Shown: positions 1,001-62,963 of the stretch, piece by piece
Numbering within the stretch: the first letter of the stretch is position 1
Layout of the letters: every line of letters begins with the position of its first letter
Source: Eledone cirrhosa
Taxonomy: Eukaryota
Direction of reading: 5' to 3'
Assembly (NCBI GenBank): GCA_964016885.1
Contig: OZ024762.1
Coordinates: 10,168,001-10,232,000 of the forward strand
Length of the DNA stretch: 64,000 bases
Made by a program: the position numbers and the translations under genes
The notes under the pieces: model-generated
What the model saw: only the letters and a program-made list of their open reading frames with translations
What the model was told of the DNA's origin: nothing
Databases searched by the model: none

Positions 1001-1041
1001 CGAGCTGAGGGTCCGCATAAGGGGAAACACTATTGTTCTCG
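1001..1041 (+). ncRNA. Degenerate minimal type I hammerhead (A9 to G)
   Basis: CGAG CTGAGGG TCC-GCATAA-GGG GAA ACA-CTAT-TGT T CTCG. Homolog of the intact copy at 28021. Confidence 0.5.
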
Positions 1042-1214
1042 GTATGGTGAACTAACTGTTGTGGAACTACTACTTATATATATATATAAGTAATTAAAGA
1101 CTATCTCTCACTATTTAGGGTTTGTGTATATATAATATATTACCATCAAAGGTTTTATTGCATACATAACCATAAATAGTACCCTTAATACTATATATAT
1201 ATATATATATATAT

Positions 1215-1428
1215 GTAGGTAACACGGTAAAAAAAAACCAGTTCCACACTGTAAATGTGGTTGGCGTTAGGAAGGGCATCCAGCTGTAGAAAACCCGCCA
1301 GAGAGTCCTATGCGAGCAAGACAACCACTCTTGCCTCAAGTGGGAAAACTCCCGTCCAAACCCATGCAAGCGTGGAATATGGACGTTAAACGTTAAACGA
1401 TGATGATGATGATGATGATGATGATGAT
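1215..1428 (+). mobile_element. 3' half of SINE family S2 with (GAT)n tail
   Basis: GGTTGGCGTTAGGAAGGGCATCCAGCTGTAGAAA...CCCATGCAAGCGTGGAA...GATGATGAT is shared with 20902, 25138, 28972 and 31969. Confidence 0.7.
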
Positions 1429-1684
1429 GTAGCTATCTATCTATCTATACATACATGTATCAAAGGTATATATTGAGTTAGAAACTCAGAATAGTCCCTT
1501 ACAATTAAAATAGCTCAAGGTCCTTTATGATCTAAACTGTATTTATCTCTCTTTACTATATATATATATATATATATATATATATATATATATATATCAA
1601 CTTACGTTATTTTCACAATGAAATTGCTTTTAGGGGCTGGGTCGATTTGATTATATCGATCCCGGTAAATTACACACTAATAAT

Positions 1685-1905
1685 AATAATTTCTGATATA
1701 GGTACATGGCCAACAATTTTTGGCTTTTATGGGTGGGCTGGGGGGAAAAGTCGATTAAATCGACCCCAGTGCATTGCTGGTACTTTATCTTCTCGACTTC
1801 GTAAGGATGAAAGGCAAAGCTAACCTCGACAGGATTTGAACTCAGAACGCAAAAGGCCACAAATCATGGTGCCAGACGCTCTACCGATTCTGTCAATCTA
1901 CCATG
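1685..1905 (-). mobile_element. Diverged tRNA-derived SINE family S1
   Basis: CTGGTACTTTAT...AAGGATGAAAGGCAAAG...GGATTTGAACTCAG core shared with more than 10 copies in the window. Confidence 0.7.
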
Positions 1906-2327
1906 CTAGCAATTTCTAATATAGAAAAGGGGCTGGAATATGATTACATAATGCCGACATCCTCACATAGCTGGTATTTCATTATATTATATTTAATTAT
2001 GTCATAATGTACATCGTGGGTTTCGTTTTTCGTTAGAAACTTGCGTGTCTTCCTGTTGTTATTTTACATATAATAAATAAGTATATAAAAAATATATGAA
2101 TTAGAAAATCAGAACCCCAACCACCATCTCAGACTGTCTCGAAAGTTCAACATAACTGCGATAAACATCATTGATTATATACATACATATATACACACAC
2201 ACACATACATATATATGTATATATATATATATAAAGCAATCAATTTAACCCCCCCCCCTCTTTATGGTTTATTGCGTGAATATATTAATCAGTCGTCTGC
2301 CTGGTCATCATTTTTGCTTTGCTGCCA

Positions 2328-4355
2328 TATATATATATATACACATATATATACACACATATATATATATATATATAGATAGATATGTGTATATATATAT
2401 GTGTGTATATATATATACACAAATATATATATATATATACACACATATATATACACACACACACACACATATATATACACACACACACACATATATACAC
2501 ACACACATATATACACCCACATATATATATACCTATATATATATATATATATATATATATATACACACACACATATATATATGTGTGTATCTGCTTAACG
2601 GCATTTCTTTCTGCCGGTGAGATGAAAAGCTACGATTATATGTGTATGTGTGAATATTTATGGATATACTTATATATATACACATATATATATATATATA
2701 TATATATATACGTAAATACCTATATATATACAATAATATATACAAATATATACACATATATATATATATACAATAATATATACAAATATATACACATATA
2801 TACACATATATATATATATATATACAATAATATATACAAATATATACACAAATATATATATATATATACAATAATATATACAAATATATACACAAATATA
2901 TATATATATATACAATAATATATACAAATATATACATAAATATATATATATATATATACATAAATATATATATATACACAAATATATACATATATATATA
3001 TATATATACACAAATATATACATATATATACACAAATATATATATATATACAATAATATATACAAATATATACACAATAATATATACAAATATATACATA
3101 AATATATATATATATATACACAAATATATATATATATATATATACACAAATATATACATATATATACACAAATATATACATATATATACACAAATATATA
3201 AATATGTATACAAAAATATATACAAATATATACATAAATATACATAAATATATATATATATATATACAAATATATAAATATATATACAAATATATACATA
3301 TATATACATATACACATATATATATACATATACACATATATACACAAATATATATATATATATATATACACAAATATATACATATATATACATATACACA
3401 TATATACACAAATATATATATATATATACACAAATATATACATATACACATATATACACAAATATATATATATATACACAAATATATTCATATATATACA
3501 TACACAAATATATTCATATATATACATATACACATATATACACAAATATATATATACATATACACACAAATATATTCATATATATACATATACACATATA
3601 TACACAAATATATATATACACGCAAATATATATATATATATACACACAAATATATACATATATATACATATACACATATATACACAAATATATATATATA
3701 CAAATATATACATATATATACATATACACATAAATATATACATATATATACACATAAATATATACATATATATACACATAAATATATACATATATATACA
3801 CATAAATATATACATATATATACACATAAATATATACATATATATACACATAAATATATACATATATATACATATACACATAAATATATACACAAATATA
3901 TACATATATATACATATACACATATAAATATATTCATATATAAATATATACAGATATATACATATACACGTAAATATATACAGATATATACAACACATAA
4001 ATATATACAGATATATATCCATATACACATAAATATATACAGATATATATACATATATATATATATATATATATACAGATATATACACAAATATATACAT
4101 ATATATACAAATATATACATATATACACAAATATATACATATATACACAAATATATACATATATACACAAATATATACATATATACATAAATATATACAT
4201 ATATACATAAATATATACATATATACATAAATATATACATATATACATAAATATATACATATATACATAAATATATACATATATACATAAATATATACAT
4301 ATATACATAAATATACAAATATATATTTGTATACACACACACAATATACACATAT
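2328..4355. repeat. Compound (TA)n/(CA)n microsatellite-minisatellite block
   Basis: Continuous TA/CA-derived units such as ACAAATATATACATATAT. Confidence 0.95.
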
Positions 4356-4613
4356 AAAAGTGTGTGTTAGCAGATATGGCGTGTGTATGTATAATAATGG
4401 TGTCAGAAAGACGACTGCTTAGAAGTTGAACATAGGCGAGGAGGGTGGAGGTGGAGAAAGGGAGTTCAGTTAATGAAGCTAGTACAGATCATAGAGACAT
4501 GAGGAGGGGGGAGAACTAGAGATGAAACCGTTCAATAAAAGAAGAAAAAAAACTCTCTAGCAAATGTTTATATGTTTGTGTTTGTGTGCAACAGAAGCAG
4601 CCATTTTGGCCAT

Positions 4614-4880
4614 AGTTCGTCAAGTATGAAATTTGTAGACATTTGTAGAAAACAACAAATTTCTACAAATTTCATACGTGACCCAGTATATATATATATA
4701 TATATATATATATATATATATACTGGTTCATCAAGAATGAAATTTGTAGACATTTGTAGAAAAAAAAAAAACAAATTTCTACAAATTTCATACTGGACCC
4801 AGTATATATATATATACTGGGTCAGGTATGAAATTTGTAGAAATTTGTTGTTTTTTCTACAAATGTCTACAAATTTCATA
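4614..4880. mobile_element. Three tandem palindromic ~80-bp MITE-like units separated by (TA)n
   Basis: TACTGG(G/T)TCA..ATGAAATTTGTAGA...TCTACAAATTTCATAC..GACCCAGTA, each with TA flanks (Tc1/mariner-like). Confidence 0.7.
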
Positions 4881-4902
4881 TATATATATATTTATATATA
4901 AT

Positions 4903-4985
4903 ACGGTGTCCCCCCGCCCCCAAATGTATACACACTTCAACAGCAATCTAATAAATATGTGTATACACTTTTTGGAGTCTCTCTG
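4903..4985. mobile_element. Tc1/mariner-like MITE (CAGGGTGTCCCC-type TIR), diverged
   Basis: Hairpin element homologous to 34729-34807 and 41098-41176, flanked by TA. Confidence 0.6.
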
Positions 4986-61380: not shown

Positions 61381-61417
61381 TACATATATATATATATATA
61401 TATATATATATATATAT

Positions 61418-61563
61418 AGTAATAATAATAAATTTGAAGACTAAAATCCAAAGAGGGCTCGATAAGGCTAAATATATATCAAATATATATTTTTAGTTTC
61501 AGAAGATCCCGTTAAGGGTGAAAGCAGCGATTCTTTGCTTAAACTTTAATCTGTTATTTTAAT
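61418..61563. mobile_element. Family F element with variant hammerhead (plus, 61495-61545)
   Basis: AGTTT CAGAAGA TCCC-GTTAA-GGGT GAA AGCA-GCGATTCTT-TGCT T AAACT. Confidence 0.65.
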
Positions 61564-61583
61564 ATATATATATATATATATAT

Positions 61584-61775
61584 AGGAACGAGTAGGACCC
61601 CGACGGCTGAGCACAAGCCGTTTCGACGGCTAATTCTGGACTGAATTAGCCGTCGAAAAGGCTTGAGCTCAGCCGTCGGGGTCCTACTTGTTCCTATTAC
61701 CCACTCTACTACCCTAAGTATTGAGTACTTTGGTGCGTTATGGTCCATCTGGTTCCTTACCACATTTCCTTCGTT
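61584..61775 (+). mobile_element. Family A foldback element
   Basis: Same consensus; inverted arms around 61640. Confidence 0.8.
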
Positions 61776-61804
61776 ATATATATGTGTGAAAAAAAAAAAT
61801 ATTA

Positions 61805-62175
61805 GATAATAAAGGTATCGTTTAAGGTAATCCAGCTAGAAGTTGTGAGTACTCTGTGTCGAGGACAGTTTTAACGTACGGCGTTGTTCGACTCAACAAG
61901 AAGTTTCCTTAGTCGGGTGGCCGACTAAGAAGGTTCCTAGGCAGACGATTCTTGGAGTATTAATAACAAACGAGTGAAGAATAACATGGTTGGCTGTACA
62001 ATAGGATTTATTTAAAGTATTAACAATTGTTTCTTTAGTCTGGTGTATCTAAAGTCGAGTAACGTTGCCCCTAACGACGAGCGACTTTTAGACACTCAGG
62101 GTTAAAGAACCAATAGTTAATATTGTAAATAAACCCTATTGTACAGCCAAGCGTGTTATTCTTCATTCTTTTGCT
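61805..62175 (-). mobile_element. Decayed family E foldback element
   Basis: TATCGTTTAAGGTAATCC...CGTACGG...GACTCAACAAGA...CTTGGAGTA is collinear with 44821-45170. Confidence 0.6.
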
Positions 62176-62422
62176 ATATATATATATATATATATATATA
62201 TATATATATATATATATATATATATAGTATTAATTATACTATTTATGGTTATGTAAATACAAAACCTTTTGCAGTTATATGTATTTTTTATATACAAACC
62301 CTAAATAGTGTGTACTGCCACTCTAAATTCTGTAATGAATGTTGACCCACAATATTTGCATATGTATCGGTATGTCTCTTGGCTGAAAAGGAGGTCATAT
62401 AACTGTCCATTCATTAATAAAT

Positions 62423-62469
62423 TGCTCCGAAGAATCCAAACCTCGGTTTGGAGGAAACAGCTGTAAGCA
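62423..62469 (+). ncRNA. Hammerhead with U4 to C change
   Basis: TGCT CCGAAGA ATCCAAAC-CTCG-GTTTGGAG GAA AC-AGCT-GT A AGCA. Confidence 0.6.
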
Positions 62470-62751
62470 CAATAATGTTTTGAACAGTTCTTTGATTCTT
62501 ATATTTCATATATATATATATATATATATATATATATATATATATAAGTAGATAAATCTACCAAAATATACGGTAGTGTCCAATCCGTATGAAGAACTCA
62601 ATGTAATCCAAATATCATGAAAAGAGAAGATGTATTCAAAATTTTTTCGATGAAAAACACAGGAAAACAGAGTCAAGATAAATTAATAAAAACAATGAAT
62701 AAAAACAAAGAAACAGTTCCTTATATTAAAAAATTCATATATATATATATA

Positions 62752-62963
62752 AAGTATTTCCGTAGGAAAGGTAAAGGAAAAGAGTGTTCGATGTAGGCTA
62801 CACAGCTTTTTAGTTATGTAATATAATTAATTCATTTACCAATGGTTTCTTGAAGAACTTGACACTTATGTCTGTCTTCATTCATCATAATTTTTTTCTG
62901 ATGAATGACGACAGACATAAGTGTCAACCTCTTCAAGAAACCATTGGTAAATGAATTAATTAT
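62752..62963. mobile_element. Family G foldback element with hammerhead (plus, 62894-62953)
   Basis: CTGATGA ATGACGA...TCTTCAA GAA ACC-ATT-GGT A. Arms 62823-62887 and 62899-62963. The unpaired end is similar to 53948-54005. Confidence 0.65.

Follow-up and report, generated by a model that had tools for sequence, protein, structure and literature searches.

A 64,000-nucleotide stretch of the genome of the octopod Eledone cirrhosa (assembly GCA_964016885.1, contig OZ024762.1, positions 10,168,001 to 10,232,000), called the window in the following, contains numerous short elements with minimal type I hammerhead ribozyme (HHR) motifs. Simple or tandem repeats make up about 46% of its length, and most of the elements are head-to-head pairs of pseudo-long terminal repeats (pLTRs) within (TA)n. 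A first-pass annotation of the sequence had taken them for an independent system of non-autonomous HHR retroelements. According to the present analysis they are very probably pLTR ends of protein-coding Penelope-like elements (PLEs), mostly of Hydra type, and by-products that are dead on arrival. That these miniature hairpins form from two primers is a step that we favor slightly; the explanation as a whole is regarded as probable.

Hammerhead motifs in the window and in the genome

Motifs were searched with a strict type I descriptor, which demands an exact CUGANGA box, at least 3 bp in helix I and in helix II, GAAA, and a self-complementary or paired helix III followed by UH. A first descriptor with a tighter helix II had recovered five real window sites, and the helix II rule was then relaxed. 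Ten strict hits were obtained in the window, compared to a mean of 0.1 and a maximum of 1 in ten whole-window block shuffles, which superseded shuffles with the masked sequence kept intact (mean 1.1 strict hits). In a genome sample of 59 evenly spaced 10-kb stretches (589,800 bases of the 3.0-Gb assembly) 40 strict hits with a C3-G8 core were counted, compared to none in each of two shuffles of 590 kb. With densities far above the shuffles in both data sets, the minimal type I motifs reported in the first-pass annotation are real. The genome sample corresponds to 0.068 strict hits per kb or about 2×10^5 per genome, an estimate with an error wider than Poisson because arms come in pairs. The window has one strict hit per 6.4 kb, about 2.3 times the density of the genome sample; the one motif per 2.5 kb given initially is reached only if decayed copies are counted.

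Nine of the strict hits (11298-, 18025+, 20368-, 20423+, 28021+, 53621-, 53798+, 56341- and 59593-, the sign giving the strand) belong to the roughly 15 intact folds listed in the first-pass annotation. Five further sites of that list, namely the 18026- mirror, 52350+, 54241-, 57859+ and 62894+, have an intact core with a helix I of only 1–2 bp. The remaining one, 45034-, is a 3' half-hammerhead without helix I, and in its relatives about 85 nt separate the core from the GAAA downstream. One strict hit, 34320-, is absent from the list and looks like a chance match. Of the roughly ten sites said to carry single core changes, seven (1001, 19097, 40940, 44406, 54040, 61495 and 62423) match the descriptor with one mismatch; 19737, 19972 and 33199 do not. 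For 19737 and 19972 a U3-A8 core is present in other copies of their family, and the core of 33199 carries a 1-nt insertion. The U4A (19097/61495) and U4C (62423) changes are family-wide core states and not the result of copy decay. Two U3-A8 motifs had been overlooked, 17713+ and 20179+, the latter with an altered GAAA.

When the helix III rule was dropped, helix III measured at least 2 bp in 32 of 36 hits and was fully self-complementary in 27 of 36, compared to 19% by chance. Helix I covaries between the HHR families. Covariation together with self-complementarity far above chance points to a fold kept by selection, and its conservation between families makes some function likely. Clustering at 80% identity yielded 15 clusters among 46 strict hits, in line with the at least eight families originally proposed. 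The proposed (TA)n targeting was also borne out: all 38 strict hits with a helix I of at least 4 bp, all clades pooled, are followed within 260 nt by (TA)4 or longer, compared to 709 of 4098 control positions (17%).

Rfam gave no hammerhead at the gathering score for the window, none at E ≤ 10 among the 33 matches on 53500-54350, and none among the 150 of 464 matches listed. In monomer folding, 0 of 8 single motifs gave the full three-helix hammerhead as minimum-energy structure, which is to be expected for minimal HHRs (PMC4209133). On the evidence of motif sequence and fold pattern, we conclude that predicted type I HHRs are present in the pLTRs.

Penelope-like reading frames behind the window families

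The absence of open reading frames (ORFs) from the elements, as originally described, holds within the window, where tblastn found 0 PLE ORF matches, but not for the families. In longer genomic copies 13 of the 16 window families extend into Penelope-like ORFs of the reverse transcriptase (RT) plus GIY-YIG endonuclease (EN) type, which the first-pass annotation had suggested to look for. The other three, families I, J and M (sites 54040, 62894 and 33199), were outside the targeted genome searches for ORF links. Hydra-type ORFs or their remnants are linked to nine families (A, B, C, D, E, H, K, L and N) and Neptune-type ORFs to two (17713 and 20179). Families F and G have Neptune-like links of weaker support, namely an EN link at 2 of 30 loci for F and one probable ORF link (L287) for G.

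Copy numbers were gauged from sequence-pattern matches across the genome. For family B, 15,843 exact matches of a 28-nt pattern were found, and an intact 821-aa ORF lies between two copies at L284. Family N shows 2,733 matches with a recurrent spacing of 4.19 kb and flanks intact 832-aa ORFs at L270 and L273. Family H has 2,478 pattern matches, with Hydra-type ORFs at L383, L387 and L391, and family F 3,358. Direct as well as inverted pLTRs with a tail at one end were seen at L270, L272, L273, L281, L285 and L387; in families A, B, N and H the tail is the 5' untranslated region (UTR) leading into the ORF. Overall, PLE ORF remains account for 2.9% of the random sample.

The Hydra-type ORFs contain RW, DKT, YRDD and CxCx5C and lack CCHH; the RW motif of the intact family B and N ORFs reads RWT and RWR, not RWK. 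The Hydra assignment of the other families is based on partial ORFs with about 30–65% identity. Compared with the Neptune-type RT/EN profile of the same genome, the Hydra-type profile aligned over 617 columns (98.7%, E 2.6e-16), and by this alignment the Hydra-type C-terminus is a predicted GIY-YIG EN. The predicted Hydra-type fold (pLDDT 81) has TERT as best structure match (3du5, E 1.7e-7); a single ORF with a predicted TERT-like RT, a feature of EN-positive PLEs, is present. A PDB sequence search with the Hydra alignment gave 0 matches, and a homologue search returned 18 proteins, all unnamed. Among Neptune-type ORFs, that at L031 exceeds the cut-off for PF01541, and PF00078 was scored just below its cut-off (28 vs 29.6 bits). 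A first look at the genome gave 10,597 candidates for PF01541, of which 150 were scored; of 30 loci, the 25 with a reported frame read as PLE endonuclease ends, mostly Neptune-type.

With 13 of 16 families linked to ORFs, the miniatures read as ordinary PLE pLTR fragments, an outcome that the first-pass annotation had itself set against its proposal. An independent non-autonomous system was not supported. No same-family direct neighbors within 1.2 kb were found for the 38 strict hits of the random sample, and none in the window, so that the tandem layout of retrozymes is absent.

Two tandem arrangements were observed elsewhere in the genome. One family, about 490 nt long and without an ORF, has an HHR with a helix I of 7 bp (L041:8640-9901). 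It was seen at 21 loci, both in short direct tandems and in head-to-head pairs, has no ORF link of its own, and is a candidate for a true non-LTR retrozyme; its share of the window is an HHR-less piece at 18291-18443. At L275 (G000:C1:83679000-83688900) an array of about 1.07-kb units, with 12 pattern matches in succession, consists of family A 3' UTR, pLTR and tail with (TA)n and may be a local duplication or a retrozyme-like derivative.

Table 1. Elements of the window with recognized pLTR ends or hammerhead remains (window coordinates; a dot, no single strand given; L numbers are genomic loci).
Element	Position	Strand	Hammerhead	Arms and relatives
Family E pLTR end	998..1074	+	A9G; predicted cleavage after 1037	Relatives trail Hydra-type EN remains (L033, L046, L049)
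Family D pLTR plus tail	11170..11400	-	Intact; C3 at 11353, predicted cleavage 11306	Relatives flank Hydra-type ORF remains (L277, L285)
Neptune-type pLTR end	17671..17835	+	U3-A8 at 17713; predicted cleavage 17742	In relatives (~80% identity), RT+GIY-YIG ORFs precede the pLTR by 1.0-1.4 kb (938 aa in L031, with Pfam search)
Family A two-armed miniature, flanked by (TA)n	17897..18090	.	Intact at 18031	Minus arm with tail; plus arm without tail, bears the HHR; family pLTR+tail continues into Hydra-type ORF (L144, L152, L271)
Family L two-armed miniature	19036..19204	.	Family-wide U4A core at 19142-	Family ~1 kb behind Hydra-type EN (L035, L107)
Family C head-to-head pair, longer arms	19645..20079	.	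Core CUGAGAA; UUGAGAA in L118	Hydra-type ORF remains (L118, L380, L381)
Second Neptune-type pLTR end	20136..20319	+	U3-A8 core at 20179, altered GAAA	Family ~1.0-1.2 kb behind ORFs (L037, L043, L049)
Family A variant two-armed miniature	20361..20597	.	Intact, 20413- and 20430+	Plus arm tailed
Family E pLTR plus tail	28014..28185	+	Core intact at 28024	
Family M fold-back	33129..33322	.	1-nt insertion in core	Tail like that of family E
Family C half-hammerhead miniature	39192..39377	.	Without CUGANGA	Arms begin within helix II
Further family C half-hammerhead miniatures	46359-46562, 50489-50718, 61585-61774			
Family A-type two-armed miniature	40864..41043	.	Decayed cores, A6G at 40984-	
Family D-type pLTR plus tail	44273..44492	-	G8A core at 44456	
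Family K fold-back	44833..45168	.	3' HHR half only in each arm	Hydra-type ORF remains (L333, L342, L348, L389); related fold-back 61816-62173
Family F pLTR end	52310..52465	+	Intact core at 52355, decayed helix I	
Family B two-armed miniature	53496..53902	.	Intact, 53682- and 53805+	Minus arm tailed; tail-less arm begins at 53736
Family I HHR	53990..54115	-	A9G at 54105	
Family H pLTR end	54192..54332	-	Core at 54322, helix I decayed	
Family D-type pLTR end	56296..56470	-	Intact at 56396	
Family G pLTR end	57720..57978	+	Core at 57862, 2-bp helix I	
Family G 3' piece	60610-60690		Core-less	
Family B miniature	59553..59860	.	59655	Full tail-less minus arm; second arm short, tailed, begins at about the cleavage site
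Family L miniature	61419..61562	.	U4A, 61500+	Minus tail piece joined to tail-less arm
Family N	62227..62507	.	Family-wide U4C, 62427+	Minus tail piece plus tail-less arm
Family J fold-back	62819..62990	.	Core at 62898, helix I interrupted by junction	

Besides the elements in Table 1, fold-backs without a recognized HHR were observed at 44647-44771, 53314-53475, 54733-54964, 56959-57177, 61201-61380 and 4619-4878. Matches to those at 54733 and 56959 are located behind PLE ORFs (L021, L028, L041), and such HHR-less fold-backs may be more pLTR ends. In the random sample, 45 of 72 fold-backs match none of the references used. A 57-bp tandem array of 19.5 copies at 25747-26854 contains, on its minus strand, CUGAUGA and GAAA boxes with a helix I of 1 bp; the sequence flanking the array is similar to a dispersed element at 19290-19358. 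Repeats similar to short interspersed nuclear elements (SINEs) at 49874-50257 and 29187-29310, with tRNA-type heads recognized by eye, show head-to-head or 5' inverted structures in the window. At 7012-8166 the minus strand carries an Elk-3-like ETS coding stretch that, in keeping with an octopod host, is best matched in Octopus sinensis (89%, with 45% of the query covered), followed by cuttlefish (78%).

Architecture and origin of the miniatures

In the typical head-to-head pair one arm stops at a TA-like boundary and the other runs on into a tail of 60–165 nt. Scoring of 82 adjacent pairs from seven families (8 family L pairs were excluded, the family L reference being without tail) located the tail on exactly one arm in 77 pairs, on both in 3 and on neither in 2. 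HHR-family pairs of the random sample were head-to-head in 17 cases and tail-to-tail in 1, compared to ratios of 8:10 and 4:4 for the two main SINEs, which show no bias. The 5' ends of the arms, given relative to C3 of the HHR core, cluster at -7 to -1 in family A, -69 in B, +39 to +49 in C and -80 in D. Every cluster begins at or next to pyrimidine-C-A, and families A and C possess a TATA-like box about 25–30 nt upstream of the 5' ends, both features having been read by eye and post hoc. Since family C begins inside helix II, most of its copies carry half a hammerhead: the 29-nt pattern of its 3' half has 36,161 exact matches genome-wide, and the core was present in only 3 of 21 sampled hits.

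Close to the pLTR boundary, an ACUC...GAGURCU-like hairpin recurs in the Hydra-type tails in families A, B, C, D, E, L, M and N, for example at 53496-53585 and 28085-28185. It was seen by eye, single-sequence folding recovering some cases only, and is a candidate protein-binding or RT-start signal.

Thirty family B junctions with one fixed and one short arm were chosen from 556 pattern matches. The tail was found on the short arm in 24 and on the fixed arm in 4 of them, 2 being unresolved; the split of 24 vs 4 corresponds to a two-sided binomial probability of about 2e-4 (hand-calculated). Near-perfect palindromes with shared AT letters are common among the junctions of the miniatures. Both arms belong to one subfamily haplotype in 14 of 15 family B pairs, compared to 3 expected at random, which excludes two randomly drawn RNAs as their source. 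In 4–5 of 30 cases the short arm starts no more than 2 nt from the predicted cleavage site, compared to about 1.5 if uniform, and the 6-nt interval expected for cleavage received 7 of the first 100 match lengths, compared to about 10 if uniform (hand-counted). Contigs from public runs contain joints that lead from varied points of the tail arm, some within the tail, to 53733-53740; they derive from four runs of three studies, one of which may be the source of the assembly, and nearly all joints are in run X1.

We propose the following sequence of events. By nicking the two strands of a (TA)n site, the enzyme of the element would prime two short cDNAs. The template would mostly be uncleaved RNA, with RNA polymerase II, as judged from the DNA ends, initiating at an initiator within or just before the HHR. 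RT would start internally at two sites, the tail end and the TA-like pLTR/tail boundary, one for each target strand. Copying from the upstream pLTR would meet the RNA 5' end after only 70–260 nt, or halt earlier, and joining of the two cDNA 3' ends would give the hairpin. Copying from the downstream pLTR would run into the 3' UTR and ORF and result in long and full-length copies. Judging by the positions of the ends, HHR cleavage, itself predicted, is not what sets most of them.

Several observations weigh against this proposal. The transcription start sites are read from DNA ends only, family B is without canonical TATA spacing, and the 5' ends are scattered in N, K and H (3, 5 and 8 pairs). 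An identical tail asymmetry is expected from snap-back if one arm is then trimmed at the TA-like boundary, and the 14 of 15 shared haplotypes are equally consistent with one strand copied from the other. The in vitro work on PLEs was performed with a Poseidon-clade element and not with Hydra (PMC11167929). Regarding PLE identity, the links of F and G amount to 2 loci and 1 locus with about 25% protein identity, and Pfam detected no domain in five Hydra-type proteins or the family G ORF. Finally, only 7 of the 38 strict HHRs of the random sample adjoin ORF remains; short copies thus dominate, which makes an amplification of short copies from ORF-less templates possible.

The strongest of the alternatives is self-priming: the 3' end of one cDNA, or of an antisense RNA, loops back to prime a copy of the same strand, after which one arm is cut back to the TA-like pLTR/tail boundary by the endonuclease. 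It has been proposed for head-to-head pLTRs (PMC3846280), with EN-mediated resolution proposed for the tail (PMC8557442), and both the haplotype shared by the arms and the common near-palindromic junctions agree with it. If trimming is omitted, however, the tail arm has to be the longer one, whereas it is the shorter one in 24 of the 28 resolved family B junctions; furthermore, a second RT start site yields tail-less cDNA directly in vitro (PMC11167929). We regard self-priming as rather unlikely. Self-propagation of the miniatures as non-autonomous elements, SINE- or retrozyme-like, with ORF-less transcripts mobilized in trans by PLE protein, would explain why short copies far exceed long ones, as in family C. 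In a rotifer, pLTRs are enough for trans mobilization (PMC3846280); the present genome holds an ORF-less tandem HHR family, and ORF-less copies that retain the 3' UTR promoter could act as templates. Nevertheless, the junctions vary between copies and hairpins are therefore not copied as units, the TATA-like box of A and C sits outside the miniature, short same-family direct tandems are missing from the 38 strict hits, and 13 of 16 families have ORF-bearing members, all of which renders this origin improbable.

The hammerhead itself could set the boundaries by self-cleavage and RNA circularization, RT dropping off the circle at structured sites (PMC4209133). Such a role would suit a fold kept by selection and a possible slight excess of short arms at the cleavage site, yet at least 25 of the 30 short arms begin elsewhere and the fixed ends lie 20–135 nt upstream of that site. 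Families with altered cores expanded anyway (U4A in L, CCGUCGA in many H copies), and HHR mutants insert normally in vitro (PMC11167929); we find the circle quite improbable. Hardly any weight is left for fold-backs as artefacts of assembly or library, or as DNA transposons resembling miniature inverted-repeat transposable elements (MITEs), combined with chance HHR matches in AT-rich DNA. Simple repeat amounts to a third or more of the sequence, and neither minimum-energy folding nor Rfam recovered a hammerhead, but the 40 strict hits of the genome sample compared to none in its shuffles, the one-sided tails, the diverged arms, the ORF linkage and the same junction type in public-run contigs are at odds with such an explanation. 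An origin of the miniatures from two primers in PLE insertion is retained as the preferred reading.

Relation to known systems

The elements are of a known kind, though their scale is unusually large. Earlier publications cover minimal HHRs, copies in solo and inverted form, the targeting of (TA)n and a Hydra family of an octopus; new are the scale, the number of Hydra families (at least nine) and the asymmetry of the arms. An octopus HHR census or an assignment of one RT start per arm was not found in the literature searched, with subscription papers thinly covered. Tentatively, this octopod genome may be the most hammerhead-rich among the compared counts, with about 2×10^5 motifs and a radiation of at least nine Hydra-clade families missed by Pfam and Rfam. 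On the same tentative footing, tens of thousands of miniature hairpins may record the Penelope mechanism in vivo, with one RT start per target strand, a pair of cDNAs that end where transcription begins, and family C starting inside its own hammerhead to leave half a ribozyme in most copies. The origin of inverted pLTRs, the one-sided tails and the role of PLE hammerheads are named as open questions in PMC8557442. The present genome, with its young and intact Hydra-type elements and its independent junctions in the many thousands, opens them to tests by counting and in vitro assay.

The hairpins score microRNA-like in Rfam below threshold. Together with the Pfam-silent Hydra ORFs this suggests that octopus repeat libraries may file the elements as unknown, SINE or MITE. 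In O. vulgaris 31 recently active Penelope-like families were described (PMC13282606), and that library may hold families found here.

Non-LTR retrozymes of animals resemble the window elements in being small, non-coding and PLE-related with a type I HHR (PMC7229834; bioRxiv 10.64898/2026.07.22.740005). In retrozymes, units that each contain an HHR follow one another in direct tandem, whereas the window has solo or inverted copies from families with ORFs; direct tandem units were not found among the window elements, and coding members occur in 13 of 16 families. The bioRxiv study derives retrozymes from PLEs, and no cephalopod is included in the parts considered. A likeness to the Neptune clade is given by the two window families that follow ORFs with RT, Cx4CxxC linker and GIY-YIG; the label Neptune-type is a putative one taken from this linker motif.

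Cervera and De la Pena (2014, PMC4209133) ascribed thousands of solo minimal HHRs to truncated PLEs. Their motifs share with ours a short palindromic helix III, an extra nucleotide after A9 (in several families), the U3-A8 variant, the mostly solo occurrence and opposite-strand pairs 100–700 bp apart. In contrast, helix II is closed by U-U instead of G-C in several of the present families. Counts of 2,000–9,000 per genome were given there, compared to about 2×10^5 here, although the descriptors differ; for the axolotl 126,247 type I HHRs were reported (PMC7229834). TATA and initiator elements were described within pLTRs (PMC3846280).

For the anole Poseidon PLE PAc, in vitro work (Frangieh et al. 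2024, PMC11167929) has shown cleavage and extension of both strands and RT starts at two internal sites bounding the tail, with HHR cleavage being dispensable. The two tail-bounding start sites, the use of both strands, an AT-rich target and an HHR dispensable for insertion are all paralleled by the proposed origin of the miniatures. PAc differs in its clade and shorter tail, and in the parts of the paper considered its start sites are not assigned to the single arms of inverted pairs.

The closest agreement is with the Hydra clade, defined by RW(K), DKT, CxCx5C, absence of CCHH and a C-terminal EN (Craig et al. 2021, PMC8557442). Inverted truncated copies, a tail, (TA)n targeting and Hydra-1_Obim of Octopus bimaculoides are described in that paper. 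C-terminal EN, RW, DKT and CxCx5C, the lack of CCHH, an HHR in the 3' region and insertion into (TA)n all recur in our elements, and by eye the N-terminal and RT motifs of the printed Hydra-1_Obim protein match the Hydra-type proteins found here. Compared to the Hydra elements as described in that paper, the present genome contains at least nine families with clear pLTRs, units of 3.3–4.2 kb where measured, tails of about 60–165 nt instead of 30–40 nt, and copies of the Hydra-type families in the thousands to tens of thousands.

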